64,000 bases of DNA from an uncultured Gemmatimonadaceae bacterium (GCA_963829055.1 CAWHHI010000011.1:32001-96000); one strand, 5' to 3'. Numbered from the stretch's first letter, positions 12,047 to 63,780 are shown. The notes: a model not told the origin generated them from the sequence alone. Numbers and translations are program-made.

Positions 12047-12056
12047 GGCGTGTCAC

Positions 12057-12611
12057 CTAACGATCGTTGCTGCGGAAGGCCTTGCCGAGCACGTAGCCGA
12101 GGCCGAGCGCGATGAGCAGCGTGCGTCCCGGGTTCTCGCGGACCTGCTGCTCGATGTCCGCCTTGAGGTCGCCGTTGCGGAGCCAGTCCGCGGACTTGCT
12201 CATCCCACGCGCGACGGAGTCCTGCACGTTCGCCATGCGGTTCGTCTGTCGCCGCGGCGACGCTTCCGCCGTCGGTAGCACCGGCGAGGGTGCCGCTCGT
12301 GCTGCCGCTGACGCAGCTTGTCGGCACCGGCGTCGAGGCGATCGGCGAGCGTGGACTGAAGCTCGCGCGCCTTGTCCTTCACCTGGCCGAACTTGTCCTG
12401 GACGGTGGCCTTGGCCTGCTCGGTCCGGCGTCTGACCCATGTCGGACTGAGTGCCCGTCGTCGTGTAGTCCGAGCCGCCCATGCCGGACCCGACGCTGCC
12501 TCCCATTCCTGCTCCACTCGTTGCCGACTAGCTCCGAAACGCCGTTCGTGCCGCCGGTGGAACCCTGACCACCGGTGCGACCGCAACGTGATCGTCAGCG
12601 TTACGCTCCAT
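12057..12611 (-). CDS. ElaB/YqjD/DUF883-like tail-anchored protein, frameshifted
   Basis: C-terminus [31 protein letters not shown] before ATG at 12611. Confidence 0.7.
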
Positions 12612-12684
12612 GACTGCCTCCTTCGGATGGAAGCCGAAGGAATGCAGAGGACGTGCCGCAGGCGTAACGCTGAACGCGTCGCGG

Positions 12685-13713: not shown

Positions 13714-15114
13714 TTATCGAACAATGTGTAGCTCGCACTGCCGCTTGTACGCCCAGCGAGTCTTCCCGTCCGCACCAATGAAGAAGTCTTCTTCCTGCGC
13801 CATCCGGACCGGCTGGCCGCCCCACTCGGGGACCGGCGTCGTCGCCTGCAGCTCCGACGAGAACCACATGCTCGGGATGATCTTCGCGTCGCCGCGGCCC
13901 GGGACGCCTTCCTGGTAATCCCACAAGCCGATCAGCGGGCCCGCGCCGTGGCCATGCATGCCGATCGGGTGCGAGTACAGGGTACCGCTGATCCCCTCGG
14001 ACTTGAGCTTCGCGAGACTCGACTTCAGCACCTCGTTGCCCGTCCGGCCCGGACGGACTTCCTCCATCGAGGATGTCCTGGAAGCGGTTCGAGTTCGCGA
14101 GCGCCTTCCGCAGCCCGGCCGGCGCTTCTGTTTCTCCTTCGCGCAGCACGTAGGCCATCGTGCTGCGTGTCCGTGTTGAGTCGCAGCGCGGTGATGCCGA
14201 CGTCGCAGTGCAGCACGTCGCCACGCTCGATCACGGGATCCTCACCGAGCTGCTCGTCGTTCGCTCCGCGCCGCTGCACCTCGATCGATGGCTGGAACCA
14301 TGTGCCCAGGCCGAGGTCGTTCACCTGCTGACGCCACCACCACACGAGATCGCTCGTGCGCGTCACGCCGGGACGGATGACCTCGTTCGAGAACATGCGG
14401 CCGATGAGCTCGATGCACGAGCTTGGTGAGATCCGTGAAGAACACTTCCTCGTCAGGCAGCCTCGTGGCGATGAGCTCGAGCGGCAGCGCTTCGGCGTGC
14501 TTGAACCGCGACGTCCACTTCGACGCCGAGCACGGCGCTCATGCCGTCGAGCTCGCCGGCGCTCAGACCGTCGGAGAACGCGAACGTACGCGAGACATCG
14601 ATCCCGATGACTTTCGGGTTTCGCTGCTCGATCGACGTCCTTGAGCACGAGCCACTGCTGATCCCCCCAGAGCTCGGCCTGCCGCCCGCCGACCGGCGCG
14701 GCGACGCCGTCGCGTCGAGCGGACGGCGTCGTAGAGCCCACCCTGCGACGTGCCGCCGAGCGCGATGCGTTCGACGCAGCCGGCTTTCCCGTTAGGCGAC
14801 GTGGCGCTGGTCGCGCCGGCGGCGCACTTGTCGAAGAAGACGTAGATCGTGCGACGTCGCGCGGCGAACGTCGTGGGCGACACGAGCGACGAGAAGACGG
14901 GATCCTCGTTGTACTCGCGCATTGGCACGACCCACATGTCGATGCCGTGCTTCTTCATGAGCGCGGGCAGGACGGTCGTTAGGCGCTGCTGCGAGCCACT
15001 GCTGCTGGCGATCGGCCTGTTCACGAAGGGTGCCGAACGGGCGGGTGGGCTGCGCGGCGAAGCGGAGCGGAGGCAGTGACGAGAGCGAGTCGAACGCAGA
15101 GTCGCGACACGCAT
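13714..15114 (-). CDS. M24 family metallopeptidase (Xaa-Pro aminopeptidase-like), frameshifted
   Basis: REYNEDPVF, GDVLHCDVGI, NTDTQH, YSHPIGMHGHGAGP, RMAQEED. Confidence 0.85.
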
Positions 15115-16889: not shown

Positions 16890-17067
16890 GCGAACGCGAC
16901 GGCGACGCGCGCAACGCGCCGCAGGAGCCGCGCACCGCGGTCACACCGGTGAACCTCACCAGTGCTCGGACTCATTCGCCATGTCTGTAGGATGCCCTGC
17001 GGCGACAGCGGGGCGAAAGCCGCTCCAGCCGGCATTCCCACGTTAGGGCGCACGGTCGGTGCATGCG

Positions 17068-18959: not shown

Positions 18960-19091
18960 CGCTAACAGCTAACGGCTAACCAGCTATCAGCTATCAGCCA
19001 TAGACCCTCGGGATGCTCATCTCAGCCAAGAGAATCGTCCGGATCGGTTCTCGCTGATCAGCTGATAGCTGCTCAGCTGATGGCTGTTAGC
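18960..19091. repeat. Heptamer (AGCTATC/GCTAACA) inverted-repeat hairpin between convergent genes
   Basis: GCTAACA GCTAACG GCTAACC AGCTATC AGCTATC AGCCAT ... GCTGATCAGCTGATAGCT...GCTGATGGCTGTTAGC. Confidence 0.7.
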
Positions 19092-20368
19092 TCCGCGCAG
19101 CGGCGCGTCCTCCTCCAGGACGACGTGCCCTGCCAGCGCGCGCCGGTTTTGTTCCGCGTCGAACGCGTTCTCGCTCTTCGCGATCACCACCGTCGCGACG
19201 CCGTTGCCGATCAGGTTCACGATCGCGCGCGCTTCCGACATGAAGCGGTCGACGCCGAGCAGCAGCGCGATCGACTCGACGGGAATGATCTTCATCGCGC
19301 TCAGCGTCGACGCGAGCACGATGAAGCCCGAGCCGGTCACGCCGGCCGCGCCCTTGGACGTCAGCATCAGCACGCCGAGGACCGTCAGCTCCTGGCCTAA
19401 CGACAGGTCGACGCCGGAGACCTGCGCGAGGAAGATCGTCGCCATCGACAGGTAGATCGACGTGCCGTCGAGGTTGAACGAGTAGCCCGTCGGGACGACC
19501 AGCCCGACGATCGGCTTCGCGCACCCGAACTTCTCGAGCTTGTCCATCAGCCTCGGCAACGCCGCCTCGGAGCTCGACGTGCCGAGCACCAGCAGGATCT
19601 CCTCCCAGATGTAGCTGAGGAATCGCCAGCAGGCTGAAGCCGTACAGGCGCGCGATGATGTTCAGCACGACGAACACGAACAGGAACATCGTCGTGTAGA
19701 CGGACAGCATGAGCTTGCCCGAGCGGGATGAGCGTGCGCAGACCGAAGTTGCCGACGGTGAACGCCATCGCGCCGAATGCGCCGATGGGCGCGACGATCA
19801 TGATGATCCCGACGATCCGGAACAGCGCCTTCGACAGCACCTCGAACACGGTCAGCGCCGGCCTCGCCGTCTCGCCTAGCGCGCTCAGCGCGACGCCGAA
19901 CAGCACGGCGACGAACACGACCTGCAGCATCTCGCCGCGCACGAACGCCTCGAGCATGTTCGCCGGCACGATGTGCGTGACGAAGTCGACGAACGTCATC
20001 TGCTGCGCCTGCGTGGTGTAGCGCGAGATGTCGCCGCCAGCGATGCGGCTGACATCGAGCCCGGCGCCGGGCTTGATGACGTTCACGACGACGAGCCCGA
20101 TCGCGAGCGCGAAGGTCGTGACGACCTCGAAGTAGAGGAGCGCCTTGCCGCCCACGCGCCCGACGCGTTTGAGGTCCCCGAGCGTTGCGATGCCGAGCAC
20201 GATCGTGAAGAAGACGATCGGCGCGATCACCATCTTCACGAGGTTCACGAACGTGTCGCCGAGCGGCCGCATCGCCTTCGCGGTGTCGGGCGAGACGACG
20301 CCGAGGATCACGCCGAGCGTGATCGCGACGAGGACTCGGAACGTCAGGTTGTTGAGGAGGCGACGCAT
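19017..20368 (-). CDS. dctA: C4-dicarboxylate:cation symporter (frameshifted)
   Basis: [60 protein letters not shown]. Confidence 0.93.
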
Positions 20369-20372: not shown

Positions 20373-20510
20373 ATCGGGAATCGGGAATCGGGAATCGGGA
20401 ATCGACGGAACCTAACGCCTGGTTGTCTGCTCTCGACCAGCGACCAGCCCGAGCGACCAGCGACCAGCTGCCAGTTCCTGTTCCCGATTCCCGTTTCCCG
20501 ATTCCCGTCT
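20373..20510. repeat. GGGAATC heptamer inverted-repeat element
   Basis: (CGGGAAT)x4 left arm, CCCGATTCCCGTTTCCCGATTCCCG right arm, internal CGACCAG repeats. Confidence 0.75.
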
Positions 20511-23009
20511 CGACGGCAGGAGCCGGAGCACATGCTTCGTCTCCGCTTCGACACGGGCGCGAGAGAACACGAGCGGGAAATATTTGTCGTTGCCCCACAG
20601 CGGGAGCAGATCGTCGTAGTACTCGCTGCCCGGCTGCGCCGACTGGCCGGGGACGTTGATCGCCACCGAGTTGTCGAAGTCGCCGAGGTCGATGACCTCG
20701 CGGTACGACGCGCCCGCGGTCTGGTGATAGTTCGCGCCGCCCGTCGCGAAGACCGTGTTCGCATCTCCAGCGCGCGACACCGGCGGCAGGTCGAACGCGC
20801 GCGCCAGCGGATGTCGAAGCTCGGCCACGTGCATCGTCCCCCAGCGCCACTGCGTCGTGTCCGCGCCGAAGCGTCCGCGTCACCTCCGCTGACCGCCTCG
20901 GCGAGCGCGCCGACGCATGAGCGAGTCGCGGAAGCGCGCGGACACCGCACCGGCTGGCGCGGCGAGGAACGCCTCGAGCTGCTCGTAGTCGGCGCGATTG
21001 CCCATCACCTGCGCCGCCTCGGCGGGAGAGTCGCGCGGCGTTCGCGCGGCGCGCGAGGATCGGCGCCCACGCCTCGAACAGCAGCGGGCGCGGCCGCGTC
21101 GCGCGACATGCCGATAGTTCCAGCGACGCGAGCATCTGCACGGCCTGCGAATCGCTCTTCCCGAGTCGCCGCGCGGCGCTAACGAGCGTGCGGCACGAGG
21201 CGACGCGCGAGGACCGAGAGGTCGTCGTGCTGCAGCGCCTGAAAGTCGGCGACGGTGAAGTCGCTCCGGCTCGCAGGACTTCCCGGATGCGCGACACGCG
21301 ATAGTCGCGACGACCAGTCGTACGCGATCGGCGTCTTGTAGCCGGGCGGCAGAATGTTGTTGTTCGCCGTCGCGATGAATCCGCTCGCGGGATTGTACGA
21401 TTGCGGCAGCTGCGCGGTCGGGACGAATCCGTTCCACTCGTAAGCGGCCGTCGCCGGGCACGGGGAGCAGTCCCGACCAGCGACGCCGCGGCATGAGCCC
21501 GGCAGCGATCCAGCCGATGTTTCCGTCGACATCGGCGTAGATCATGTTCTCGCTCGGCATTCGCCAGCGCGCCATCGCGCTCTGGAAATCGCGCCAGTTT
21601 TGCGCGCGCCCGAGCTGAAGCGACGCGAGATACGCGGCGGTCCCGGGCTCCTGACCGACCATGCGAATCGCGACGGCGCGCCCGCGCGCGGAATCGCTCG
21701 AGACGATGGGGCCGTGGTGGGTGAATTCGAGCCTAACGATTCGCGGCTGGCTCTCCCTTCACCCGTATGGTGTCGATGACGGTCGTGATGGGTTGCCACC
21801 CGCCGTTGTGGAAGTAGCAGCGGGACGCGGGAGACCGGGAACGGGGAGGCGGGAGCTGCTGCTGCCGCGGCTGCTCGAGTTCCCGTTCCCCGTTCCCCGT
21901 TCCCCGTTCCCGCAGCACGGCACCAACTCTCTCGACATACACATCCTGCTGATCCATTCCCACGATCGTCAGCCCGAACGCGATGCGCTCGTTATGCCCG
22001 ATCGACACGCCCGGGCTCGCGGGCTCACCGGCGCCGATCACGTTCCAGCCCGGCCCGACGAGGTGCGTGATGTAGCGGACGGACGGGTGCGTGATCGCGC
22101 GATGCGGATCGTTCGCGAGAATCGGCTTGCCGGATCGCGTCTTCTTGCCGCTCACGACCCAGTTGTTCGAGCCCTCGACGCGCTGAAAGGCGATGTCCGA
22201 GTACGCGCTGCCGACGCCGCCGAGTGACGACTGATCGAGCCCGCGCGAGGTCGAGGCCGGGGACCGGATCGAGCGCGCGCGTCGGCTCGGTGGGGAGAAC
22301 CTCCTCGGTCGCCTTCTTCGCGCCGACGAGCGAGACGAGTCGCGCGCGCAGGATTTCCGTCGTCGCGTTCGACACGCCCGAGAGCGACGGTCACGCGCGC
22401 GAGCGGAACGTCGACGGTCCACGGCTCGGGCGCGAAGCCCATCATCGTGAACTCGATCGGCAGGCGATCCTTCACCTGCGCGATGTACGCGTTCACGCCG
22501 TCCGACGAACGCGCCGACGATCGCGCTTCGCGTTCGGACCGTACGCGGCCCACTCGGCGTCCGCTGGACCCACGATAGCGGAAGAGGCGCGCGAGGCGGT
22601 CGCGCTCCGACGGCGCGAGGGCCTAACACTTCGGCGAGTCGTCCTTCCGCCTGTACGACGCCACATCTCCATCTGCCAGAGGCGATCCTGCGCGGCGACG
22701 AAGCCCTGCGCGAAGAAGAGGTCGTGCTCGGTGCGCGCGTAGATGTGCGGCACGCCCCAGCGGTCGCGCCGCACCTCGACGGCGCTGTCGAGGCCCGGGA
22801 TCGTCGATCGTGCCATCGATCTGCGCGAGTCGCTTGACTGCTTCGTCGCGGAGCGTATCGGCGCTCGACGGCGAGCGCCGAGCGGTGCGCGTCGTTCGAC
22901 GGAGTCGTGGCCGCAGAGCCGGACGACGTGCCGACCATTGCGAGCACGATGGCGCTCGCGACGAGACTCGATCAGTTGAACGAGATTGCCCGGGAGAGCC
23001 GCTGATCAT
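20412..23009 (-). CDS. Penicillin acylase family (Ntn hydrolase), multiple frameshifts
   Basis: [34 protein letters not shown] (catalytic Ser), [25 protein letters not shown]. Confidence 0.92.
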
Positions 23010-28564: not shown

Positions 28565-28591
28565 GCGTTAGGTTGAACGCGGCGCGTAACA

Positions 28592-28675: not shown

Positions 28676-29584
28676 TTGCCATACACGTTCTACACCGCCG
28701 ATGTCTTCACGGACACGCTCTTCGGCGGCAACCAGCTCGGCGTCCTCCCCGATGCGCGTGGTCTCACCACCGAGCAGATGCTCGCCATCACGCGCGAGTT
28801 CAACTACTCCGAGTCGACGTTCGTCTTTCCGCCTGACGATCCGAAGCACACGCGCCGCGTGCGCATCTTCACGCCCGGCGGCGAGGTGCCGTTCGCGGGA
28901 CATCCCACCGTCGGCACCGCGCACGTGCTCGCGGCGATCGGCGAGATTCCGCTCACCGGCGACCTGACGCGCATCGTGTTCGAGGAGAACGTCGGGCCGG
29001 TGCCGGTCACGATTCGCGCTCGCGACGGGAAGCCCGAGTTCGCGCAGCTCTCGGTGGCAATGCTGCCGCAGGTGAGCGAGCCGCCCGTTAGGCGCGAGCG
29101 GCTGGCCGAGCTGCTGTCGCTCGACGTGCAGGATCTGCTGGATGGCGAATACGCGCCGCAGACCGTGTCGTGCGGGCTACCGTTTCTGCTCGTGCCACTG
29201 CGCGATCGTAAAGCGGTCGCGCGCTCGCGACTGAGACTCGAGCCGTGGGAGCAGACGCTTCGGGGCACGCCGTCGGAAATGGTGATGGTGTTCGCGGCGG
29301 ACGCGGAGCGGCCGGGCTCGGACATCCGCGCGCGCATGTACGGGCCGGCGGTGTCGGTCGCGGAAGATCCCGCGACGGGCTCGGCGTGCGCGTGCCTCGC
29401 CGGCTACCTCGCGGCGCGCACGCCGCGCGATGGCACGCTGCGCTGGGTCGTCGAGCAGGGCTTCGAGATGGGCCGCCCGAGCATTCTCGAGATCGAAGCC
29501 GACAAGCAGAACGGCGCCATCACGGCGGTGCGCGTTGGCGGAAAGACTGTGCTTGTTTCGAAGGGAGAGTTGTTAGGCGTGTAG
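28676..29584 (+). CDS. PhzF family isomerase/epimerase
   Basis: DVFT..FGGNQL, EFNYSESTF, RIFTPGGEVPFAGHPTVG, EDPATGSA, EQGFEMGRPS. Confidence 0.93.
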   Translation: MPYTFYTADVFTDTLFGGNQLGVLPDARGLTTEQMLAITREFNYSESTFVFPPDDPKHTRRVRIFTPGGEVPFAGHPTVGTAHVLAAIGEIPLTGDLTRIVFEENVGPVPVTIRARDGKPEFAQLSVAMLPQVSEPPVRRERLAELLSLDVQDLLDGEYAPQTVSCGLPFLLVPLRDRKAVARSRLRLEPWEQTLRGTPSEMVMVFAADAERPGSDIRARMYGPAVSVAEDPATGSACACLAGYLAARTPRDGTLRWVVEQGFEMGRPSILEIEADKQNGAITAVRVGGKTVLVSKGELLGV

Positions 29585-42782: not shown

Positions 42783-43343
42783 GATGGCTCCTGATGAAAC
42801 GGAAGGCGGAGACGACGCCACGTGCGTGGCCACGCCTCGGGGAAAGAATCGCGTGAATGCGTGACGTCGCGGGTGGTCGCGCGGATCGAGTAATCGTTTA
42901 CATCGCACCAGCGATGCGGCGCTGCGGCGCGTCATGGACGGGGCATCATCAGCGACGGATCGCCGAAAGGCAGGGGCGCGCGGAGACCGCCGTCCGCGAG
43001 GGACACGTTAGGCGCGCGACACGGCGCCAGCACGGGCGTTGCCGGTTCATCGGTCCCCTCCTGCGAGCACTGTCCACCCCACCTCACCCCACCCTTCCCG
43101 GCGTGCACGCTACGAACGCACGGGTCCCGACCAACCGGGAATTCGCCTGCAGCGCTGGCTGGCAATCACGTTTCGTCCGAGAGTCGCCGCTGTCAAGGGC
43201 ATTAACGGTCACGAAGCGTCTGCCGCGACGGGCGGTACACCCGCTCGCGCGAATCATCGTCCGGGTATAGTCTCCTCCGACGTGGCCGGCGATCGGCTCG
43301 CCACGCGTTGCTTCACGATCACGTTCAGACCTGCTCCAACCCC

Positions 43344-46277: not shown

Positions 46278-46488
46278 ACAGCAGGACAGGATGGCAGGAT
46301 TGACAGGATTGGACGGCTTGCAGCTCGGGCGGCCTCGCGCAACGAGCCGGGAATGAGGGGAACGCCCGGTCGGGACGCCACTCTCCCCGAGATGTGTTCC
46401 TTCATTCGTTAGGCCCGGCGGCGCGCTCCCCGACGCCGCGGCGGTCATCTTCTCAATCCTGTCAATCCTGGCCATCCTGTCTTGCTGT
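46278..46488. repeat. Nonamer (CAGGATTGA)-based inverted-repeat element
   Basis: ACAGCAGGACAGGATGGCAGGATTGACAGGATTG ... CAATCCTGTCAATCCTGGCCATCCTGTCTTGCTGT. Confidence 0.8.
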
Positions 46489-46583: not shown

Positions 46584-48418
46584 ATGAGACACGCACTCCT
46601 GGTCCTGATCGCCGCCGGGCATTGCCGGCGCGGCGACGCAATCGGCGGCGCAGGCTCCGACGATCGACAAGGTCGAGCCGCCGAACTGGTGGGCCGGGTA
46701 TTCGATCAATCCGGTTCGACTGCTCGTTCGCGGCAGCGGGCTCGCCGGCGCGAGGATGACGTGTGCGCGCCTAACGTGCGGTAGCCCCAAGGTCAACGCC
46801 GCCGGCACGTACGCGTTCGTGGACGTGACCGTTCCCGCGGGCACGGCTGCCGGCGCGTACCCGCTCGTGTTGCGGACCGCGGGTGGCAGCGCGACGGTGC
46901 CGTTCACGGTCAGCGGCGCACTCCCGAAGGCCGGGCGGTTCCAGGGCTTCGGCCCTGACGACGCGGTGTACCTCATCATGCCGGACCGATTCGCCAACGG
47001 CGACTCGGCCAACGACGACCCGGCCAAGTCCCGCGGGCTCGTCGACCGGAGCAAGACGCGCTTCTATCACGGCGGCGACCTGGCCGGCATCCGCCAGCGG
47101 CTGCCCTACCTCAAGTCGTTAGGCATCACGGCCCTCTGGCTCAACCCCATCTACGACAACAACGATCGGCTGAACGAGAAGGAAGTGTACGACGGCCAGC
47201 CGATCACGGACTATCACGGCTACGGTGCCGTCGACTTTTATGCCGTTGATGAGCATCTGGGCGACGTCGCGACGTTCCGCCAACTCGTCGACGACGCGCA
47301 CCGGATGGGCATCAAGGTCATCCTCGACATGGTGGCCAACCACACGGGGCCATATCACCCGTGGGTGAAGGACTCGCCGACGCCAACGTGGTTTCACGGA
47401 ACGGCCGACAAGCATCTCTCGAACACGTGGCAGATCTGGACGCTCGCGGATCCGCACGCCACGCCCGCGACGCGCGAGGCGACGCTGGACGGATGGTTCA
47501 TCGACATCCTCCCGGACTTCAATCAGGAGGACCCGGAGGTTTCGAAGTACATCATCCAGAACACGCTCTGGTGGGTCGCGATGAGCGGCATCGACGGGAT
47601 CCGTCAGGACACATGGCCGTACGTGCCGCGCGGTTTCTGGCGCGACTGGATGAGCGCGATCCGCCGCCAGTATCCCGCGCTCAAGGTCGTCGGCGAGGTC
47701 TCGGACGGAGATCCGTCGCTCGTCTCGTTCTTTCAGGGCGGGCGCACGCAGTACGACGGCATCGATGACAAGGTGGATGGCCTGTTCGATTACCCGCTGT
47801 TCTATCCAATGCGTCGCGCGTTCGGCGAGGGGAAATCGTTACGCGAGGTCGCACAGATGCTCGGGCACGACTGGCTGTACCCGGATCCCTCGCGGCTCAT
47901 GACGTTCGTGGGGCTGCACGACGTACCGCGGTTCATGAACGAGCGCGGCGCGACGATCAAGGGGCTCGAGCTCGCGTACACGTTCCTGCTCACCGCGCGC
48001 GGCACGCCACTGCTCTACTACGGCGACGAAGTCGCACTCCCCGGCGCGGGTGACCCGGACAATCGTCGCGACTTCCCAGGCGGCTGGTCAGGGGATGCCC
48101 GAAGTGCATTCGATGCATCCGGCCGCACGCCGCCGGAGCAACAGCTGTGGTCACACGTGCAGCGCCTGTTGCAGCTCCGCGCGCAGCGGAGCGATCTCCG
48201 AACCGGACGCATGGAGCATCTCGGTGACGAACGATCAGTCGTTCGTGTACCGCCGAGGGCGCACGGTGGTGGCGCTGAACAACGACACCACCGCGGTCAC
48301 GCTGCGGCTGCCGATCGCGACGTTGCCCGACGATGCGCTGGGCGTGTGTGCCCGTCCACGGAGCGAGAGCGGTGCCGTCGTAGTGGTTGTCCCGCCACGC
48401 AGCGGGTGCGTGTTCTAG
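46584..48418 (+). CDS. GH13 cyclomaltodextrinase/neopullulanase (SusA-like), frameshifted
   Basis: KVEPPNWW, YLIMPDRFANGD, YHGY, DMVANH, DGIRQDT, GEV, HDVPRF, YYGDE. Confidence 0.92.
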
Positions 48419-48448
48419 TGGCTGCCTAACGGACACAGACGTCATCTC

Positions 48449-48724: not shown

Positions 48725-48774
48725 CCGACCAGAGCGTGCCCGTCCCGAACGCCTAACGACGCGAGATCAGGCGG

Positions 48775-49598: not shown

Positions 49599-50804
49599 AT
49601 GGCTGCAGGCACCACTGACGATAGCTCGGTCCTCGCGCCCGACGTCGATGAGCACGCGGAAGCGTCGCCCGCCGCGCCTGGCGCGCCGACGCCCAATCTC
49701 GCGAAGACGGCGTCGGCGCTCGCGACCGTTCGAGCGCGATCGGTGGGCGTCACCATCCTCGCGGTCCTGGCGCTGCTCTACACGCTGTTCTTCGCGCGCG
49801 ACTTCCTGCTGCCGATCGTCATCGCGCTGCTCCTGAACCTGTTGTTCAGTCCCGTCGTTCGTTCACTCACGCGGGTTGGGATCAGCGCACCGATCGGCGC
49901 GGCGGTCGTGGTGCTCGGACTCCTGGGGCTCGTGAGTTTCGGTGTCTACGAACTGTCGACGCCGGTGGAACGATGGGCCGCCGAAGCGCCGAAGACGCTC
50001 GCGAACGTCGAAACGCGCATGAAGAAGCTCATGAAGCCGCTGGAGCGCGTACGGCGTACCGCCGAGCAGGTCGAGACGGCGACGAGCACCGCGGCGCCGC
50101 CGAAGACGACCGAGGTCATCTTACGCGGGCCGGGAATCGTCGCGCGGGTGTTCGGCACGACGCAGCGCTTCGTCGCCGGCTCGCTGCAGGTGCTCATCCT
50201 GCTCTTCTTCCTGCTTGCCTCTGGCGACCTGTTTCTGCAGAAGCTCGTGAAGGTGTTGCCACAGCTGGGCGACAAGCGCAAGGCGGTAGAGATCGCGCGC
50301 GCGGCGGAGTCGTCGATCTCGACCTACCTCATCACGGCCCTGGCGATCAACGTCGGCGAAGGCATCGTGGTGGCCGGCGTGCTGTATCTGCTGAGGATGC
50401 CGAACCCGCTCCTGTGGGGCACGATGGTCGTCCTGCTCGAGTTCATCCCATACCTCGGCGCGGCGACGGTCGTCATCGTGCTGAGCGTCGCGGCGCTCAC
50501 GGCCTTCGACTCGGTGAGCCACGCGCTGCTGATCCCAGCGTCCTTCCTGGCGATCAACCTGCTCCAGGCGAACATCGTCAGTCCGATGCTGTTCAGTCAC
50601 CGCCTAACGCTGAATCCGGTGGCGCTGTTCGTGGGCCTGGGATTCTGGTGGTGGATCTGGGGAGTTCCCGGCGCGTTCATCGCGGTGCCGCTCGTGGCCA
50701 CGTTCAAGATCTTCTGTGACCACATCGCCACACTCGCGCCGATTGGCGAGTTTCTTGGCCAGCGCGATGAGAAGGAACGTCGCGAGACCGTGCGCGCGGC
50801 CTGA
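49599..50804 (+). CDS. AI-2E (PerM-like) family transporter
   Basis: Multi-TM; PNPLLWG, EFIPYLG, LNPV, WWWIWGVPGAFIAVPL. Confidence 0.88.
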   Translation: MAAGTTDDSSVLAPDVDEHAEASPAAPGAPTPNLAKTASALATVRARSVGVTILAVLALLYTLFFARDFLLPIVIALLLNLLFSPVVRSLTRVGISAPIGAAVVVLGLLGLVSFGVYELSTPVERWAAEAPKTLANVETRMKKLMKPLERVRRTAEQVETATSTAAPPKTTEVILRGPGIVARVFGTTQRFVAGSLQVLILLFFLLASGDLFLQKLVKVLPQLGDKRKAVEIARAAESSISTYLITALAINVGEGIVVAGVLYLLRMPNPLLWGTMVVLLEFIPYLGAATVVIVLSVAALTAFDSVSHALLIPASFLAINLLQANIVSPMLFSHRLTLNPVALFVGLGFWWWIWGVPGAFIAVPLVATFKIFCDHIATLAPIGEFLGQRDEKERRETVRAA

Positions 50805-50874: not shown

Positions 50875-51278
50875 GCGCTTACACGCCCTGAGCCGACGGG
50901 TACCGAACTCCGTGTACGGCTGGCTGGCTCGGCCCCGTCGTCTCGGGGCTACGCGCCAACGACCCCTACGACGCGACACCCCCGCCTCCTGCGTACGCAT
51001 CCCGACCGTCAGGGCAAGCAGCGCGCAGCACCCAGCAAGTGCGCGCCCTAACGCTGACCGCGCCGCCCGCAGAGGGGACGCGGACTTGCTGCGCTGCTGG
51101 CGCGTGGGCCGGTCGCGATGCGTGCGGCGGTGACGAGCGGCCGGCCACGCGAGCGAGCCATGACCGTGGGGCGCGGGCGCTCGGCGTAGGGGGCCTCGCG
51201 CGTAGCCCCGAGACGGCGGGGCCGAGCCACTCTCACAGCATGGAGTTCGGTACCCGCCGGCTCGAGGCGTGTAAGCGC
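50875..51278. repeat. ~400-bp element with ~100-bp imperfect inverted arms between convergent genes
   Basis: GCGCTTACACGCC..GGGTACCGAACTCC..GGCTCGGCCCCG..GTCTCGGGGCTACGCG pairs with 51185-51278. Confidence 0.8.
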
Positions 51279-53850: not shown

Positions 53851-55171
53851 CTAGCCGGCGGGGCGTACCCGCGGGCGCGCCACGGACCGTATCGGCCGCG
53901 GGAGGGGCCTTCTTTGGCATGATGGCCTCGTGCTTCATTCGCCGCCGCCATATCGACGCCTGCCATTCCTGCTCCGCCGTGCGCTCCTTCGCCTCGCCGA
54001 TGGCGAAGAGCATCGCGGTCAGCGCGATCGCGAGCGGCCCGAGCACGGCGATCGGACCCGTCGGCAACACCCTGGCTCGGCCGTCGTCATCGCGATTCAC
54101 GCGTTCCACGAGTGCGGGAAAACGCCGCTGCATCCAGACGGTGGCCACGATCACGAGGAGGCCGAGCGTCGCGAGCGCGACCGGCAGTGCGATGACGCGA
54201 CGGAAGACGTCGAATGCGAGGTAGCCGAGGTACCCGAACGCCGCGACGCCGCCGGCGAGGAGCAGCACGCGTCGTCGGAGATAGAGTGACGCAACGACGA
54301 GCGCCGCGGCGACGAGCGGCATCGCGTGTCGCCAGGCGCCGATCGATGACCAGACCTGCGTGTAGCCGACGCCCAGCGTGATCGAGCCGGCGATGTAGAA
54401 CCAGAGGGCGTAGTCCTCGTCAGGCGGTTGGCGTCGATCCACCGCGTAGGCGATGGCGAACAGCGTGCACGCGATCACGCACTGGTAATACGGGCCCACG
54501 TACCACGACAGGCGCGGGTCGCCTAACGCCCGCCCCAGATGCAGCATCACGCCGACGAGCGCGATGGCGACGGGAGCCGCCAGCCCGAAGAACGGCACGC
54601 GGCGGATCGTGGCGAGCGCGACGCCGATGGTGGCGAGCTCGATGATGATGGCGCGCGATGCCATGTAGGGATCGTACCGCGCGAGCGCGTTGTCCCACGC
54701 GAGCGGATCGGGCCATTCACCGGTAAGGCGGAGCACCGCCCAGCCCCAAACGGGCGTCATCGCAACGGCGAGCACAGCAGCGATCCCACCAGCAAGCTCG
54801 AACCCACGACGGCGGAGCAATGTGGCGGCACCCGCGAACGCCGCCGCATACAGCACCGACACGCCGAGCACGCCGCCGGGTCCGAGCGCGGTCCACCGGT
54901 CGGCGAGCAACCAGCCGAGGGCGAACAACACGAGCAGTGCGCCGAGCGAGTAGGCGATGGTGATGGCGTTGAAGCCGCGGCGCGCCTCCCGACCGATCGT
55001 CGCGCCAGGCGTGGCGGCGGCTATCGCCGCGTTAGGCACCACGGTCGCCAGCTCGACGGCGAGCGCGTGCAGCGCGGTTCGCTGCTCGGCGTCGATGACA
55101 CCGCGGTCAGCAGCAGCGTCGATGAGGGCGCTGGCCGGGACGTTACGGGTGAGTCGGTCGACTTCGGACAC
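53851..55171 (-). CDS. Multi-pass membrane protein (DUF2157-like); 3' end uncertain
   Basis: AADRGVIDAEQRTAL N-terminus, YSLGALLV, ~11 hydrophobic segments; ORF read-through into the next gene probably due to an indel. Confidence 0.65.
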
Positions 55172-56161: not shown

Positions 56162-56165
56162 GAGC

Positions 56166-59001
56166 ATGGAGGGGACACGAGTGACGACACGATCGAAGCC
56201 GGCAGCGAAGCAGACCGCGATGCTCGAGGAGTACCGCGCGAAGCGCGACTTCGAACGGACCGAGGAGCCCGAGGGCGCGACGCGCTCCTCGGGCTCCTCG
56301 AGCACAAAGGCATCGTCGCCCGCGCGACCGCTGCGGTTCGTCATCCAGAAACACGCGGCAAGCCATCTGCACTACGATTTCCGCCTGGAGCTGGATGGCG
56401 TGATGAAGAGCTGGGCGGTGCCGAAGGGTCCGTCGCTCGACCCCACGCAGCGACGGCTCGCGATGGAAGTCGAGGATCACCCGATCGAGTACAACACGTT
56501 CGAAGGCACGATCCCGGCGGGGCAGTACGGTGGCGGCACCGTGATGCTGTGGGACCGCGGGACGTATGACGCCGCCGAGGGCGGCGTCGACGCGTTGCGC
56601 CGCGGGTACGAGCGCGGCGACATGAAGTTCACGATGAACGGCGAGCGGCTGCGCGGATCGTTCGCGCTCGTTCGCATGAAGGGCAAGGGCGAGCGGAAGC
56701 CGCAATGGCTTCTGATCAAACACCGCGATGACGACGCCGTCGCGGACTGGGACATCAGCGCGATCGACACGTCGGTCGCTACGGGACGCACGATGGACGA
56801 GATCGCGAACGGCAAGCGGGCGAAGACAAAGGCCGCAGCGCCAGCCGCCGGCGTGAAGCGCGCCAAGGCGAAGCCCGAACCCAAGGTGACGCCAGCGCGC
56901 GCACCGCGCTCGCCGCGCTCGGTGTCCAGCATCACGCCGATGATGGCGTCGATCGGAACCGAGATCCCCACCGGTGACCAGTGGACGTTCGAGCCGAAAT
57001 ACGATGGCGTCCGCGTGCTCGCCTTCGCATCCGGCTCTGGCGTTAGGCTCGTCACGCGCAACGGCAACGACAAGTCGGCGCAGTTCCCCGAGGTCACGGC
57101 GGCCGTGCGCACCCTCGCGCAGCGGCGCAAGCGCCCGTTCGTGCTCGACGGCGAGATCGTCGCCCTCGAAGGCGATGCGCCGGCACGCTTCCAGGCACTG
57201 CAGGGGCGCATGCACCTCAAGGACACCGAGGACATTTCCGGGCAGCGGACGAGTGCGCCATCGGCGCTCATCGCGTTCGATCTCCTCGTGGACGGGACGG
57301 ACGTCATCGTCGACGAGCCCTGGACGGTGCGCCGGAAACGACTCGAGCGTTTCATCGGCACCAATCCGCCTAACGCTTTGCGACTCGGGGAAACGGGGCC
57401 GGGCAATGGCGAGCAGCTGCTCGCTCGCGCACGCAAGAACGACTGGGAAGGCATCATCGCGAAGCGCACGACGTCCGTGTATCAACCCGGCGCGCGCTCA
57501 CGCGATTGGCTCAAGCTCAAGATCGAGTTCCGTCAGGAGTTCGTGGTCGGTGGCTACACCGAGCCCCGCAACACGCGCGAGCACATCGGCGCCGTGCTCC
57601 TCGGCTACTTCGACGGCGACGATCTCGTGTACGTCGGACACACCGGCGGCGGGTTCAACCGCGAGAGCCTTGCGGACATGGCGCGTCGCCTGCGTCGGCT
57701 CGAGCGGAAGTCGTCGCCGTTCTCGACGACCGTGCGGACGAACGAGAAAGCGCACTGGGTGCGACCGGAGGTCGTGGTCGAAGTGAAGTTCAACGAGTGG
57801 ACGGATGATGACCGACTGCGAACGCCGATCTTCCTGGGTGTTCGCGATGACAAGGACGCGCGCGAGGTCGGGCGCGAAGCGACGAGCGTTCAGAGAGGCG
57901 CTGCCACGCGACGGCGCGTTGGCGCCGCCGCGAGCGCGAAGACCGCGAGGAAGACGACGACGAAGACCGGCGCGAAACCGCGCTTCGACGAAAGCCGCGA
58001 CGAAACTCCCTGCGAAGAAGCAGACGGTCCGCGGCGACGTGTCATCGCTCGAGGGTGAGCTCGAAGCTGCGGAGCGCGAGGGACGCGATGCACACCTAAC
58101 GCTGTCGAGGGGCGTCTCCCTCAAGCTGTCGAGCCTCGGCAAGGTCTGGTTCCCGGGCCGCGCCGGCGGGTTCACGAAGGGTGACGTGCTTCGCCACTAC
58201 GTGCGGGTCGCGCCGTTCATTCTTCCGGTCATGGCCGACCGCCCGATCGTGCTCAAGCGATTCCCGGACGGCATCAACGGTGAAGCGTTCTACCAGCAGA
58301 AAGCGCCGGAGCATCCGCCGGCCGGCGTCCGCGTGGAGACGATCGAGGACGCCGACGGCGATCGGGTGGAGCGCCTCGTCGGCGGCTCGCTCGCGACGCT
58401 GCTGTACCAGGTGCAGCTCGGCACGATCTCGGTGGACCCGTGGCACGCGCGCGTGCAGTCGCTCGACTTCGCGGACTGGTCGGTCATCGATCTCGACCCG
58501 GGACCGCGTGCGAAGTTCGAGCGCGTGGTGGAGGTCGCAACGTGGGTGAAGGAGGAGCTCGACCAGCTGGGGCTCCGCGCGGCGATCAAGACGTCAGGTG
58601 CGAGCGGCCTTCACATTTTTCTTCCGCTGCCACCGCGCACGAGCAACGAGTCGGCGCTGCTCATCGCGCAGATCGTGGCCACGCGAGTGGCACAGGCGCA
58701 TCCGAAGGAGGCGACGGTCGAGCGCGGGGTCGCGGCGCGGCCGAAGTCCACGGTCTATGTCGACTACCTGCAGAACGTCCTCGGCAAGTCGGTGGCGGCG
58801 GCATACGCGGTACGCGCGCGGCCAGGCGCGACGGTCTCGACGCCTCTCGAGTGGAGCGAGCTGACCCCGAAGCTGGATCCCACGGACTTCACGATCGAGA
58901 CGGTGGCAGCCCGCTTCGCGCGGGTGGGCGACCTGTGGGCGGCGGGGCTCAAGGAGCGGAATTCGTCGGCTGCGTTGAAGGCGCTGACTACGAGGCGCTG
59001 A
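56166..59001 (+). CDS. ligD: DNA ligase D (phosphoesterase + ligase + primase-polymerase; frameshift ~57990)
   Basis: FVIQKHAASHLHYDFRLE, EPKYDG, LDGEIV, EGIIAK, WLKLK; IDLDP, KTSG, VYVDYLQN. Confidence 0.95.
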
Positions 59002-60191: not shown

Positions 60192-61269
60192 TCGGATGGT
60201 TGATCGAGCGACCCGCCCGAAGAACACCGCTGGCAACACACCCGCGATCGTCCAGCTCACGCTGTCGCGCTTTCGCGAATTCTATCGCGAGCCCGAGGCG
60301 GTGTTCTGGGTGTTCATCTTTCCCATCCTGCTGGCCGCGGGACTCGGTATCGCGTTTCGGAATAGGCCCGCTGAGGCATCGCACATTGCCGTTGTCTCGA
60401 GCGCCGCGAACAATGCTGTAGTGGACTCGTTGAAGACGGCACCTAACGTCACTGTCGACGTGCTCGACGACACGGCGGCAACCGCAGCGCTGCGAACTGG
60501 TCGAGTGGCACTCGTTGTCATACCGCGTGCGGATGGCGGCGTCGAGTATCGATTCGACGAGGCGCGTCCCGAGTCCCGCACGGCGCGGCTCATCGTCGAT
60601 CGCGCCGTACAACATGCTGGAGGTCAGCAGGATCCGGTGCGCACGACCGACACGCGCGTGAGCGAGCGTGGGTCGCGCTACATCGACTTCGTCGTGCCAG
60701 GGCTGCTCGGCATGAACCTCATGGGAAGCGGCATCTGGGGCATCGGCTTCTCCATCGTCGACGCGCGAAAGAAGAAGCTGCTGAAGCGACTCATCTCGAC
60801 GCCAATGTCGCGCGCGCAGTACCTCGCGTCGTTCCTCATCTTCCGACTGTCGTTGCTCGTGATCGAGGTCGCGACCCTCATCGGCTTCGGCACGCTGGTG
60901 TTCGGCGTGCCGCTCCGAGGGTCGTTCATCCAACTCGTCGCGATCTGCGTGCTGTCGTCACTCGCGTTCGGCGGAATGGGATTGCTGGTCGCGTCGCGCG
61001 CCCGCACGGTCGAGGGCGCGTCCGGCCTCATGAATCTCGTCATGATGCCGATGTGGGTGTTCTCCGGCGTCTTCTTCTCGTCAGGCAACTTTCCGAAAGT
61101 CGCGCAGCCGTTCATTCAGGCGCTTCCCCTCACCGCCGTGAACGACGCGCTGCGCGCCAACATGCTGCAGGGCGCCTCCTGGAACGTCGTGGGCCACGAG
61201 ATCGTGATCATCGCGACGTGGCTGGTGGTCTGCTTCACACTGGCATTGAGACTCTTCCGGTGGCGGTGA
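60181..61269 (+). CDS. ABC-2 type permease
   Basis: REPEAVFWVFIFP, RYIDFVVPG, LKRLISTP, FSGVFF, LPLT. Confidence 0.9.
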   Translation: MTSDRMVDRATRPKNTAGNTPAIVQLTLSRFREFYREPEAVFWVFIFPILLAAGLGIAFRNRPAEASHIAVVSSAANNAVVDSLKTAPNVTVDVLDDTAATAALRTGRVALVVIPRADGGVEYRFDEARPESRTARLIVDRAVQHAGGQQDPVRTTDTRVSERGSRYIDFVVPGLLGMNLMGSGIWGIGFSIVDARKKKLLKRLISTPMSRAQYLASFLIFRLSLLVIEVATLIGFGTLVFGVPLRGSFIQLVAICVLSSLAFGGMGLLVASRARTVEGASGLMNLVMMPMWVFSGVFFSSGNFPKVAQPFIQALPLTAVNDALRANMLQGASWNVVGHEIVIIATWLVVCFTLALRLFRWR

Positions 61270-62273
61270 ACGCGCGTCGTAGTTGGGTGATCGCGGCATT
61301 CGTCGCGGTCTACCTGATCTGGGGTTCGACCTATCTCGGTATCCGTTTCGCGATCGAGACAATTCCGCCGTTCCTGCTATCGTGCGTGCGCTTCACGCTC
61401 GCGGGAGCGATTCTCCTCGTCATCGCGAAGGTGCGCAACGCTCCGAATCCGACGGCTCCGCAGTTTCGGACCGCGGCGATCGTCGGCTCGCTGCTGATGC
61501 TCGCGAACTCGCTCGTTGGCGTGGCCGAATCGCGGATTCCGTCCGGCATCGCCGCGCTACTCGTGGCGATGACGCCGCTCTTCATGGTGATCCTCGAGTG
61601 GGCGCGTCCTCACGGGAAGAAGCCGACGCTGCTCGTCGCGATCGGGCTCCTGATCGGACTCGGCGGCGTCGTCGCGCTCGTTGGCCCGGGATCGTTCGGC
61701 GGCGGGGGTGGCATCGACCTGATCGGCGCCGGTACGGTCGTGGCTGGCTGCCTGGCGTGGTCCAGCGGCTCGATCTACTCGCGTTATGCGCCACGTCCGT
61801 CGTCGGGGCTGGTGATGACGGGATACCGAATGCTCGTGGGCGGGGTGTTCGTGGGCATCATCGGCGTCATCCGCGGTGAGTTCGCGACGTTCCACCTCGC
61901 GGACGTCTCGATGCGGTCGATCCTCGCGTGGGCGTATCTGCTCGTCTTCGGGTCGCTCATCGCGTTCACGGCGTTCGTCTATCTGCTGCGCGTCTCGACG
62001 CCGGCGCGCGTGGCGACGTATGCGTACGTGAACCCGGTCGTTGCGGTGATCCTTGGCTGGTTGCTGGCAGGCGAAGCGATCAGCTCGCGAATGATCGTGT
62101 CGGCTGTCATCATAGTCGCGGGCGTCGCGCTGATCACGTTCGCTGAAGGGCGCACGCCGGCGCCCGCCAGGGACGAGCGCGTGAAGCGGGTTCGCGCGGA
62201 TGGCACACCGTACTCCGTTCCGGACTCCGTCCTCACGCCCGCCGATGACGTCCCCGCCACCGATCGCGCCTAA
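61266..62273 (+). CDS. EamA/DMT family transporter (YedA-like)
   Basis: VYLIWGSTYLGI, PSGIAALL, FGSLIAFTAF, TYAYVNPVVAV. Confidence 0.9.
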   Translation: MNARRSWVIAAFVAVYLIWGSTYLGIRFAIETIPPFLLSCVRFTLAGAILLVIAKVRNAPNPTAPQFRTAAIVGSLLMLANSLVGVAESRIPSGIAALLVAMTPLFMVILEWARPHGKKPTLLVAIGLLIGLGGVVALVGPGSFGGGGGIDLIGAGTVVAGCLAWSSGSIYSRYAPRPSSGLVMTGYRMLVGGVFVGIIGVIRGEFATFHLADVSMRSILAWAYLLVFGSLIAFTAFVYLLRVSTPARVATYAYVNPVVAVILGWLLAGEAISSRMIVSAVIIVAGVALITFAEGRTPAPARDERVKRVRADGTPYSVPDSVLTPADDVPATDRA

Positions 62274-63780
62274 CGTCATGCTCGAGCCGCTGACTCCGAC
62301 CGACCACGACACGCCGTTCCTCGGCGACATTCCGCCTGACGAGTTCCATGCGCAGGCGCGTCGCGTCATCCGGTGGATCGCGGACTACCTCGAGAACCCG
62401 GAGCGCTTTCCGGTGCTCGCGCGCGTCGCACCAGGCGACATCACGGCGAGACTTCCCCTCGAACCGCCCGCGGAGCCGGAGTCGATCGAGGCCGTACTCG
62501 ACGACTTCGAGCGGCTGATCGTGCCTGGCGTGACACACTGGAACCACCCCGGCTTCTTCGCGTACTTCTCGGTCTCCGCATCGGCCCCGGGTATCCTGGC
62601 CGAGATGCTCATCGCGGCGCTGAACGTGAACGCGATGCTGTGGAAGACGTCGCCGAGTGCGACGGAGCTCGAGCTGCGAACGCTGGACTGGCTGCGGCAG
62701 ATGCTCGGGCTCAGGGAGGGATGGTTCGGGCTCATCAACGACACCGCGTCGATCTCCACGCTGCTGGCGCTGGCCGCGGCGCGAGAGGCGAAGCCGGAGC
62801 TCGAGATCCGCGAGCGTGGAATGGCCGGCCGCACTGACCTGCCGCGGCTCCGCGTGTACACGTCGTCGCACGCGCATTCGTCGGTCGACAAGGCGGCGAT
62901 CACGCTCGGAATCGGGCACGAGAACGTCGTGCACATCGACGCCGATGACGCGTTTCGCATGAAGATCGACGCGCTCGAGGCGGCGGTGCGCGCCGATCGG
63001 GAGCGCGGCTATCTGCCACTCGCGACGGTGGCGACCGTGGGAACCACGAGCACGACGAGCATCGACCCGGTGCCGGCAATCGCCGCGTTATGCACGCGCG
63101 AATCGATGTGGCTGCACGTGGACGGCTCGTACGGCGGCGTCGCGGCGGTGGTGCCGGAGATGCGTCACGTGCTCGCGGGCGTGGAGCTCGCGGATTCCCT
63201 CGTCGTGAACCCACACAAGTGGCTGTTCACGCCGATCGATCTGTCGGCGATGTTCACGCGTCGCCCCGACGTCCTCAAGCGCGCGTTCACGCTCGTGCCG
63301 GAGTATCTCGTCACGCGCGAGCAGAGCGATGTCGTGAACCTCATGGATTACGGCGTGCAGCTCGGCCGCCGCTTCCGCGCGCTCAAGCTGTGGATGGTGA
63401 TTCGCGCGTTCGGCGCTCACGGCCTCGCGGCTCGCCTGCGACAGCAGATGGCGATGGCGCAGGAGTTCGCGAGTTGGGTGGACGAAGAACCGGATTGGGA
63501 GCGCGTCGCGCCAGTGCCGTTCTCGCTCGTGTGCTTTCGTTATGCACCGGCTGGTACGAGCGAGGTGGATCGCGACGCCATGAACGCGGCGATTCTCGAG
63601 CGTGTGAACGCGAGCGGCAGCGCGTATCTCTCGCACACGAAGCTCAACGGCCGCTTCGTGCTCCGCCTGGCCATCGGCAACATGCGTACGGAACCGCGAC
63701 ACGTCGCGAATGCGTGGCGGCTGCTGCGTGACATGTCATTGTCAGCCCGAGGAGCAACAGCGACGAGGGACCTTCTGTGA
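62245..63780 (+). CDS. PLP-dependent group II (aromatic L-amino acid-type) decarboxylase
   Basis: PGVTHWNHPGFFAYF, SPSATELE, AHSSVDKA, TVGTT, WLHVDGSYGG, NPHKW (PLP lysine), GRRFRALKLW. Confidence 0.93.
   Translation: MTSPPPIAPNVMLEPLTPTDHDTPFLGDIPPDEFHAQARRVIRWIADYLENPERFPVLARVAPGDITARLPLEPPAEPESIEAVLDDFERLIVPGVTHWNHPGFFAYFSVSASAPGILAEMLIAALNVNAMLWKTSPSATELELRTLDWLRQMLGLREGWFGLINDTASISTLLALAAAREAKPELEIRERGMAGRTDLPRLRVYTSSHAHSSVDKAAITLGIGHENVVHIDADDAFRMKIDALEAAVRADRERGYLPLATVATVGTTSTTSIDPVPAIAALCTRESMWLHVDGSYGGVAAVVPEMRHVLAGVELADSLVVNPHKWLFTPIDLSAMFTRRPDVLKRAFTLVPEYLVTREQSDVVNLMDYGVQLGRRFRALKLWMVIRAFGAHGLAARLRQQMAMAQEFASWVDEEPDWERVAPVPFSLVCFRYAPAGTSEVDRDAMNAAILERVNASGSAYLSHTKLNGRFVLRLAIGNMRTEPRHVANAWRLLRDMSLSARGATATRDLL

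Follow-up and report, generated by a model that had tools for sequence, protein, structure and literature searches.

An exact DNA word repeated thousands of times in Gemmatimonadaceae genomes as a candidate uptake-sequence-like self-tag

The word in the window and in its genome

The stretch of DNA analysed here (the window; 64 kb, G000:C11:32001-96000) comes from the genome of an uncultured Gemmatimonadaceae bacterium, G000 (7.78 Mb in 20 contigs, 67% G+C, rated 86% complete), and is interspersed with the non-palindromic heptamer CCTAACG or its complement CGTTAGG, the word that is the subject of this study. Thirty-eight exact copies lie in the window, 19 per strand (Table 1), and the base before the heptamer makes 28 of them GCCTAACG, 8 ACCTAACG and 2 CCCTAACG. 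A first-pass annotation made from the window alone had listed these 38 copies, equally divided between the strands, together with two one-mismatch copies; every position was reproduced, and both mismatch copies read GCCTAACA. The annotation had also put the expectation at about 6 copies, which is slightly too high (2.69, standard deviation 1.66, largest 8, in 100 dinucleotide-preserving shuffles, 0/100 of which reach 38), while its suspicion that the true excess is larger proved right.

The excess extends to the whole genome. The heptamer is found on 20/20 contigs at 0.64-1.09 copies per kb, 6391 in total, and its neighbouring bases define a full word, yGCCTAACG, whose octamer GCCTAACG is present 5004 times where 131 copies are expected under an order-1 Markov model and 102 under an order-2 model (observed/expected ratios of 38 and 49). 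Under low-order Markov models, GCCTAACG is the most over-represented 8-mer of G000 among words with at least 300 copies. Such low-order models are required, and rankings with maximal-order and order-4 models were rejected, because the sub-words of the word itself carry the excess and thereby hide it: 6391 of the 8933 CTAA tetramers of G000 lie inside the word. The base at position -1 is G in 78% of heptamer copies, weaker preferences favour C or T at -2 and C or A at +7, with G rare at both positions and A rare at +8, and outside -2 to +8 the base frequencies equal the background, with neither a conserved flank nor an AT-rich flanking segment. A dispersed repeat, of the repetitive extragenic palindromic (REP) or miniature inverted-repeat transposable element (MITE) type, is ruled out by this lack of conserved sequence beyond the core. 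The flank preferences are alike inside and outside called genes, which, together with the presence of the heptamer on every contig, bears out the earlier suggestion of a genome-wide signal at the DNA level. Among single-base variants in G000, C-to-T changes are rare (GTCTAACG, 24 copies; GCTTAACG, 24; GCCTAATG, 13) and G-to-A changes at the ends are common (ACCTAACG, 827; GCCTAACA, 435). Also one base off the word is GCATAACG, with 583 copies in the genome (3 times the order-4 expectation) and 7 in the window (16160, 21990, 32126, 33551, 61782, 63086 and 63538); it could be a second signal or a variant that is tolerated.

The word shows no replication-linked polarity. The octamer orientations are divided 2457 to 2547, adjacent copies are co-oriented about half the time on every contig, and contigs of 0.4-1.25 Mb hold 46-55% forward copies. 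Its spacing is more even than random, since 12.6% of the spacings fall below 300 bp (22.1% for a Poisson process) and 2.3% below 100 bp (8.0%). Close pairs of up to 150 bp are equally rare in the convergent, divergent and direct arrangements, with no excess of inverted pairs in G000, and a search of this genome for dense clusters returned none, the densest kilobase holding 6 copies.

Six word-free gaps in G000 exceed 10 kb. The three longest (49.6, 44.1 and 31.5 kb; Table 1) lie at a contig end or within about 5 kb of one, consist of ordinary multi-gene DNA and are possibly islands or mis-joined pieces; the comparison with relatives covered the gap on C11. This gap reaches into the window, where no heptamer occurs upstream of 12056, and the confinement of the copies to the part beyond 10.4 kb, pointed out by the first-pass annotation, coincides with a junction at 10,440 to DNA that congeners lack: window 1-10,439 has a DNA match in 0/6 congeners and the DNA from 10,440 on in 6/6. 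On the contig, C11:42,440-48,366 is repeated at the end of C8 (C8:435101-441077; 90-93% identity), and in congeners G001 and G004 synteny to the left of the junction is with C8 instead of C11. We conclude that the assembly contains two haplotypes or a chimeric join at the junction, that the 42-kb start of C11 is non-native and that C11:1-42,439 is either strain-specific foreign DNA or a chimeric join, which is why window 1-10,439 is without the word.

Two gene groups stand out in the word-bearing part of the window, a starch-utilisation-like cluster (38160-48429) with a SusD-like protein, a TonB-dependent receptor, MalQ and amylases, and a non-homologous end-joining locus (54539-59001) in which the genes for Ku, LigD (phosphoesterase and ligase) and a LigD primase-polymerase adjoin. 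A second over-represented word family in G000 overlaps into one longer, GCTCGGAATGACA-like repeat; GGAATGACA occurs 536 times in the genome, 15 times the order-4 expectation, and the family is probably a small dispersed repeat element.

Table 1. Copies of the word, word-free segments and junction. Positions are those of the window unless a contig of G000 is named; L001-L005 and L012 are loci of relatives in the alignment of the MalQ neighbourhood.
Feature	Position	Strand	Remark
Word-free segment	1..10439	.	No heptamer; within G000:C11:1-42439; glycosyltransferase and Wzy-like genes (Pfam)
Junction	10440..10440	.	Rightward DNA common to 6/6 congeners and to the end of contig C8 (90-98% identity)
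Word copy, ACCTAACG form	12056..12062	+	
Word copy, GCCTAACG	14790..14796	-	
Word copy, GCCTAACG	14977..14983	-	
Word copy, CCCTAACG form	17041..17047	-	
Word copy, GCCTAACG	19396..19402	+	Within split dicarboxylate-symporter gene
Word copy, ACCTAACG form	20411..20417	+	
Word copy, GCCTAACG	21732..21738	+	
One-mismatch copy, GCCTAACA	22621..22628	+	
Word copy, ACCTAACG form	28566..28572	-	
Word copy, GCCTAACG	29086..29092	-	PhzF-like gene
One-mismatch copy, GCCTAACA	29571..29578	-	
Word copy, GCCTAACG	31000..31006	+	Cyanophycin-synthetase-like gene
Word copy, GCCTAACG	31385..31391	-	TAG of the word closes open frame 29762-31390
Word copy, ACCTAACG form	33771..33777	-	Peptidase S51 gene
Word copy, GCCTAACG	34501..34507	-	
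Word copy, GCCTAACG	34951..34957	-	Amylase gene
Word copy, ACCTAACG form	36168..36174	-	
Word copy, GCCTAACG	37016..37022	-	Amylase gene
Word copy, ACCTAACG form	37538..37544	+	
Word copy, GCCTAACG	39160..39166	+	SusD-like gene
Word copy, GCCTAACG	40712..40718	-	TonB-dependent receptor gene
Word copy, GCCTAACG	41173..41179	-	TonB-dependent receptor gene; relatives' loci without the word at that column
Word copy, GCCTAACG	41568..41574	+	TonB-dependent receptor gene
Word copy, GCCTAACG	41805..41811	+	Kept in place in 5/5 loci of close relatives (L001-L005)
Word copy, GCCTAACG	43006..43012	-	Window only in the alignment
Word copy, GCCTAACG	46068..46074	-	Kept in place in L001-L005; TCGCTCGGC in L012
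Word copy, GCCTAACG	46407..46413	-	
Word copy, GCCTAACG	46770..46776	+	Common to L001 and L002
Word copy, GCCTAACG	47117..47123	-	Common to L001, L002 and L005; TCG TTA GGC vs GAG CTC GGG in L012
Word copy, GCCTAACG	48425..48431	+	TAA of the word serves as stop codon of the 557-aa amylase gene 46756-48429
Word copy, GCCTAACG	48752..48758	+	
Word copy, GCCTAACG	50603..50609	+	AI-2E transporter gene
Word copy, CCCTAACG form	51047..51053	+	
Word copy, GCCTAACG	54522..54528	+	
Word copy, GCCTAACG	55030..55036	-	
Word copy, GCCTAACG	57041..57047	-	LigD gene
Word copy, GCCTAACG	57369..57375	+	LigD gene
Word copy, ACCTAACG form	58095..58101	+	LigD primase-polymerase gene
Word copy, ACCTAACG form	60442..60448	+	
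Word copy, GCCTAACG	62269..62275	+	TAA of the word closes open frame 61053-62273
Long word-free stretch	C6:5440-55038		G+C 0.70
Long word-free stretch	C6:591808-623330		G+C 0.73
Long word-free stretch	C11:1-44055		G+C 0.66

Override of codon usage and origin in place

Coding context was assessed with a crude gene caller of our own (6734 genes, 71% of the genome), which under-calls and cuts many starts short, so that the class of copies counted as intergenic (2219) is inflated and retains codon periodicity. Within called genes, the 2136 sense copies are read as CCT AAC G (1124), nnC CTA ACG (742) or in the stop frame (270), and the 2036 antisense copies as nCG TTA GGn (1543), nnC GTT AGG (485) or in the stop frame (8). 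An orientation following gene direction, which we had first suspected from same-strand runs in some relatives, is rejected by these totals for G000; the runs are integron cassette arrays (see below). The word supplies the TAA with which 278 called genes end and the TAG of another 227, and it holds a large share of several codons, namely TTA (1543/2665, 58%), CTA (744/3542, 21%), CCT (1134/7838, 14%) and AGG (486/5582, 9%). Both the use of rare codons in various frames and the overlap with stop codons had been noticed in the window, and both are properties of the genome. A codon-preserving null had been named beforehand as the decisive comparison, with an observed/expected ratio near 1 speaking against a signal. 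In 10 replicates of a within-gene synonymous shuffle, a mean of 310 heptamers is found vs 3907 observed, and 140 octamers vs 3105 (22-fold), a conservative null because the word itself raises the counts of those rare codons. The encoded peptides are affected as well: in the called proteome PN[GAVDE] tripeptides number 1875 vs 1159 in the reversed order, and 1134 of the 3269 Pro-Asn pairs and 1543 of the 5626 [SPTA]-Leu-Gly tripeptides are encoded by the word.

Comparison of orthologues, which the first-pass annotation had proposed as a test of positional conservation, reveals how the copies originate. In the aligned MalQ neighbourhood, 4 of the 9 window copies occupy the same place in relatives of 77-82% MalQ identity and the rest are lineage-specific, and locus L012, from another lineage, has word copies of its own at other columns of the alignment. 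The orthologous differences are substitutions, such as TCG TTA GGC vs TCG CTC GGC, or CTA vs CTG. The same holds for the RpoB gene, in which GCCTAAC is found in 0/12 genomes poor in the word (rich and poor genomes are defined below) and in 13/14 rich genomes, at 1-10 copies each and 71 in total. At one Ala-Leu-Gly column of RpoB, 11/14 rich genomes have GCG TTA GGC and 10/10 poor genomes with sequence there use a CTN leucine codon; at three further Ala/Pro-Leu-Gly columns GCG TTA GGC appears in 8, 7 and 7 rich genomes, where poor genomes have CTC or CTG. Some RpoB copies alter the encoded residue (Phe to Leu, Gln to Leu, Asp to Asn, Glu to Asn). The word is created in place through point changes, most of which are synonymous, and not by insertion of an element.

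These observations bear on whether the word is the binding site of an abundant chromosomal protein, involved in nucleoid organisation, segregation or a similar process, with each site under selection. An exact word in both orientations, regularly spaced with a deficit of close pairs, present in particular lineages and kept in place at 4/9 sites of the MalQ neighbourhood despite 77-82% protein identity, would suit such a function. Yet thousands of sites would each have to be selected strongly enough to prevail over codon usage and over RpoB residues, their positions vary freely between lineages, clusters or arrays are missing (at most 6 copies per kb), and we know of no nucleoid protein with an exact 8-mer enriched about 40-fold. 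We therefore regard this explanation as improbable.

The copies could in principle be artefacts of long-read basecalling, of assembly or of a dispersed repeat, and the G000 assembly does contain many split genes and therefore carries indel errors. In the window, split or truncated genes encode a dicarboxylate symporter (19017-20950), a cyanophycin-synthetase-like protein (29762-32849), an amylase (34846-37538) and P5C reductase (7415-7732, dimerisation domain only), which suggests assembly indel errors or pseudogenes. However, short-read assemblies (MEGAHIT, SPAdes) of relatives, in which the annotation had considered that an artefact of basecalling would be absent, carry the word at their MalQ loci (7 copies in L001, 8 in L002 and 16 in L012, over about 7.5 kb each), and the word is thus not a basecalling artefact. 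Congeners assembled in 400-570 contigs have the same word density as G000, genome G061 (4 contigs, 100% complete) holds 4469 copies, and no flank is conserved, leaving an artefactual origin with a practically negligible probability.

Distribution, candidate readers and the integron attC core

All genomes of the genus of G000 (7/7) carry between 2501 and 5112 octamers, and across 401 Gemmatimonadaceae genomes from 77 genera the octamer counts are bimodal. When each genus is called from its first-listed genome against a reversed-word control (rich, at least 2 times the control; poor, at most half), 26 genera are rich, 42 poor and 9 in between; three of the first-listed genomes (G013, G055 and G056) are flagged unpublished. 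In rich genomes the forward and reverse counts are always similar. One genus, g59, is itself split into 6 genomes with 3244-4141 copies and 8 with 4-66. Beyond the family, enrichment is restricted to a single sister-family genus (g111) and to part of the genomes of a third family within the order; the 83 genomes sampled from other orders and classes (families f4-f12) show none. The word yGCCTAACG is a genuine DNA-level signal of G000 and of about one third of the genera of its family. Rich genomes sampled from five genera share the same core with small differences in the flanks: G209 has GCCTAACGA (A at +7 in 61%), G070 has G at the eighth base in only 63% and G061 is strict, so that the differences between lineages resemble dialects. 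In G128, a poor member of g59, we detected no comparable hyper-abundant word in a small sample (130 kb), only a local repeat of the GAAAGCAG type.

On an RpoB tree (26 genomes, a single gene picked by BLAST, quick maximum likelihood), rich and poor genomes are interleaved with at least 8 changes of state, and the approximately unbiased test rejects a single rich clade (difference in log-likelihood 372, p 4e-75). The word-rich lineages are polyphyletic on RpoB, which calls for a reader that is mobile, for loss on several occasions or for a seed held in common. With at least 8 transitions among 26 genomes and a genus divided 6:8, a full phylogenetic profile has real power to find the genes concerned.

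None of six genes tested for co-distribution (IntI, ComEC, PilT, two methyltransferases and an AddA-like nuclease) tracks the word. The transformation machinery of G000 includes ComEC, DprA and PilT (4 matches), with ComEC present in 35/36 family genomes and PilT in 40/40, rich and poor alike. A regular-expression scan gave 7 matches, only 4 of which are convincing type IV pilin-like frames.

The first-pass annotation had offered a methyltransferase-driven motif as one of three mechanisms and suggested a search for a co-distributed gene. As proposed for HIP1, a methyltransferase acting with a mismatch-directed nuclease, or a context-specific repair bias, could convert near-cognate sites into the word. 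HIP1 (GCGATCGC) of cyanobacteria is a palindrome linked to methyltransferases, with a reader that is not settled, and resembles the present word as a hyper-abundant, lineage-specific short word written into genes. The patchy, polyphyletic distribution, which mobile restriction-modification-like modules also show, and the rarity of C-to-T variants beside common G-to-A end variants would fit such a process. Unlike HIP1, however, the word is non-palindromic and is tracked by no methyltransferase. C5-methyltransferase, Vsr, N6_N4 and N6_Mtase families (PF00145, PF03852, PF01555, PF02384) are without a match in G000, at its 86% completeness. The only DNA methyltransferase genes found there, an Eco57I-type/SNF2 fusion and a D12-class gene, were both rejected as readers: the fusion is present in 36/39 genomes, rich and poor alike, and the D12-class gene in 22/40, including 8/8 poor genomes of g59, and was not found in 10 rich genomes of 8 rich genera (g9, g50, g58, g65, g72, g83, g79, g38). 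Moreover, the changes that make the word run from G/C to A/T (CTC/CTG to TTA, CTG to CTA), opposite to the T:G to C:G direction of short-patch repair. Methylation-linked repair is disfavoured by these gene searches and by the direction of change, and we consider a word driven by repair or modification unlikely. The fusion itself is an Eco57I/MmeI-type N6-adenine methyltransferase-SNF2 helicase encoded by a large gene at about 5552-10415 of locus L106 (G000:C8:68000-84000); in most genomes the match to it breaks near query residue 262 and contains stops, owing perhaps to the query frame or to a real frame change.

A recombination hotspot read by a helicase-nuclease in double-strand-break repair would also yield an over-represented word. 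Chi is likewise a short, non-palindromic and over-represented core-genome word, and G000 contains an AddAB-like pair (two PDDEXK_1 matches 3.6 kb apart, G000:C15:11673-16046). Chi and the FtsK orienting polar sequences (KOPS), by contrast, are co-oriented with replication, and the contrast with such strand-polarised words drawn from the window extends to the genome, where the contigs of 0.4-1.25 Mb reveal no replichore-scale polarity. RecC has no match in G000, and the AddA-like nuclease, which we rejected as a reader, is present in only 7/40 genomes (in g59, 5/8 poor and 0/6 rich) and is absent from both congeners. Lacking both polarity and a tracking nuclease, a Chi-like function is largely refuted and very improbable.

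A different connection is provided by the word-poor relatives, in which the few octamers cluster on one strand, 500-600 bp apart, and prove to be integron cassette arrays; most word copies of poor genomes sit in such attC arrays. Large chromosomal arrays occur in word-poor relatives of the sister family at L047 (G027:C95:1-20000) and L048 (G025:C3:1-9000), where 23 and 8 attC sites, respectively, about 100 nt long, open with GCCTAACG and in most cases close with GTTAGGC. In its letters the word is identical to the R'' core of these local attC sites and the base that follows. It likewise conforms to the consensus of attC (R'' RYYYAAC, R' GTTRRRY), and its core equals the R'' of attC(aadB), as given in the portion of PMC12901181 available to us. 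An identity of 8 bases out of 8 with the attC core is unlikely to be due to chance. The letters are the same (GCCTAAC / GTTAGGC), but the arrangement differs: attC sites are imperfect inverted repeats of about 100 nt in one orientation, 500-600 bp apart, whereas the genome-wide copies of the word stand alone as 8-mers and may point either way.

A tyrosine recombinase of the integron type, or one related to it, might read the word, for example as an attG-like secondary site, or the word might have been seeded by attC sites and kept by cassette traffic. G000 contains an IntI gene (C20:208041-208958; 265.7 bits vs a family cut-off of 265) with no obvious array adjoining, and single attC-like sites are scattered on C20 at 119250, 119423, 173524, 183881 and 191801, 16-89 kb from intI; an attC core that holds most copies in poor genomes could, in addition, serve as a ready-made self-signature. 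Next to intI on C20, 10 successive copies on the same strand were considered as attC and turned out to be ordinary copies, and in the surroundings of intI in 8 genomes no attC-like pairs passed a strict, possibly too strict, inverted-repeat filter. However, the presence of IntI does not track the word (g59, 4/6 rich and 5/8 poor; g58, 0/2 rich), the dispersed copies are single and unstructured, without a partner box or inverted repeat (attC structure being confined to the few C20 loci), copies arise by substitution and not insertion, and the +7 preference is C/A genome-wide vs G/A in arrays. An integron-linked signal is, on this evidence, distinctly unlikely.

An uptake-sequence-like self-tag as the likeliest explanation

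We consider the word to be most plausibly, with a rough probability of 0.45, an uptake-sequence-like self-tag that is kept by recombination-linked drive. In the mechanism that we think most likely, which is accepted for uptake sequences in Pasteurellaceae and Neisseriaceae, a putative protein would read the duplex word in either orientation, and competent cells would preferentially take up, or otherwise recombine, fragments that carry it. Alleles with the word would thereby replace alleles without it, single-base changes that create the word would spread preferentially where the local sequence tolerates them, and a genome-wide drive of this kind could hold the word at about 0.8 copies per kb without any element insertion. 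What we observe directly are the statistics of the word, its origin in place, its precedence over codon usage and over some amino acids, the lack of copies in foreign DNA, and genes for ComEC, DprA and PilT; we infer that the bias acts at uptake and that word-rich bacteria are naturally transformable. Among the three mechanisms offered by the first-pass annotation, an uptake signal fits best, a methyltransferase is disfavoured and a nucleoid-protein site is a possible alternative, as is an integron-linked process. The annotation knew of no description of the word, and our full-text literature searches for the word, its complement and the heptamer cores returned none; those on uptake sequences and on attC sites in Gemmatimonadetes listed nothing relevant.

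The parallel with the uptake signal sequences (USS) of Pasteurellaceae is close. The available part of Findlay and Redfield (PMC2817400) describes uptake sequences as occurring in both orientations, more evenly than random, arising by mutation in place, with a frame bias and an enrichment of the peptides that they can encode, and lacking in DNA without homologues; for Haemophilus influenzae, it gives a 9-bp core with 1471 copies in 1.83 Mb. The present word shares a similar density (0.82 per kb), a non-palindromic form, equal orientations, a more even than random spacing, an origin in place by point mutation, a mostly genic location in preferred frames and an enrichment of encodable peptides, and no copies lie in DNA to which relatives have no homologue (window 1-10,439; C11:1-42,439). 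It differs from the USS in having no flanking AT-rich segments and in its occurrence in a different phylum. With the DNA uptake sequences (DUS) of Neisseriaceae, which the accessible parts of PMC3630211 and PMC3868556 describe as read by the minor pilin ComP and as having dialects, the word shares a short exact form, lineage-specific edges that resemble dialects and the character of a signature of own DNA. DUS are, according to the same part of PMC2817400, largely intergenic and paired as terminators, whereas copies of the word are mostly genic and single.

Several points weigh against a self-tag. In its favoured frame the word is read with the rarest leucine codon, TTA, and it needs rare codons in general, whereas frame use in known uptake sequences followed preferred codons, and uptake sequences often form dyad pairs that act as terminators (PMC2817400, in the part available), pairs that the word lacks. 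The same word is found in polyphyletic lineages within one family, for which the two known uptake-sequence families offer no parallel, and its identity with the attC R'' core is not accounted for by plain uptake bias. ComEC and PilT, being universal, give no account of which genomes have the word; ComEA (TIGR00426) has no match in G000, and neither a candidate receptor nor a ComP-like reader was found for the word. We also found no published experiment on uptake or transformation in the phylum, and no title on bacterial competence among the Gemmatimonas literature listed.

A variant of the self-tag that would connect it to integrons is one whose reader was tuned to the universal attC core, which we regard as a rather unlikely but consequential case. 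If it were true, an uptake or recombination protein that prefers the attC core would import integron cassettes preferentially, and the attC core would be driven into every gene of the recipient lineage as a by-product. Were this reader mobile, it would also explain the same word in RpoB-polyphyletic lineages. Natural transformation would then be linked to cassette capture, and integrons would have a genome-wide footprint. The identity with the attC core is a link worth testing.

The word also has practical use as a marker that reveals foreign DNA and chimeric joins in the family's metagenome-assembled genomes, as it does at window position 10,440. To our knowledge, sequence-specific uptake self-tags are known from only two families, both of host-associated Proteobacteria. 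A 2025 preprint on uptake self-tags is, in its accessible part, framed around those two families alone. If the word is such a tag, these two families would be joined by a third case, from soil bacteria of another phylum and with the same density, which would show self-tags to be a general outcome of DNA exchange among bacteria.

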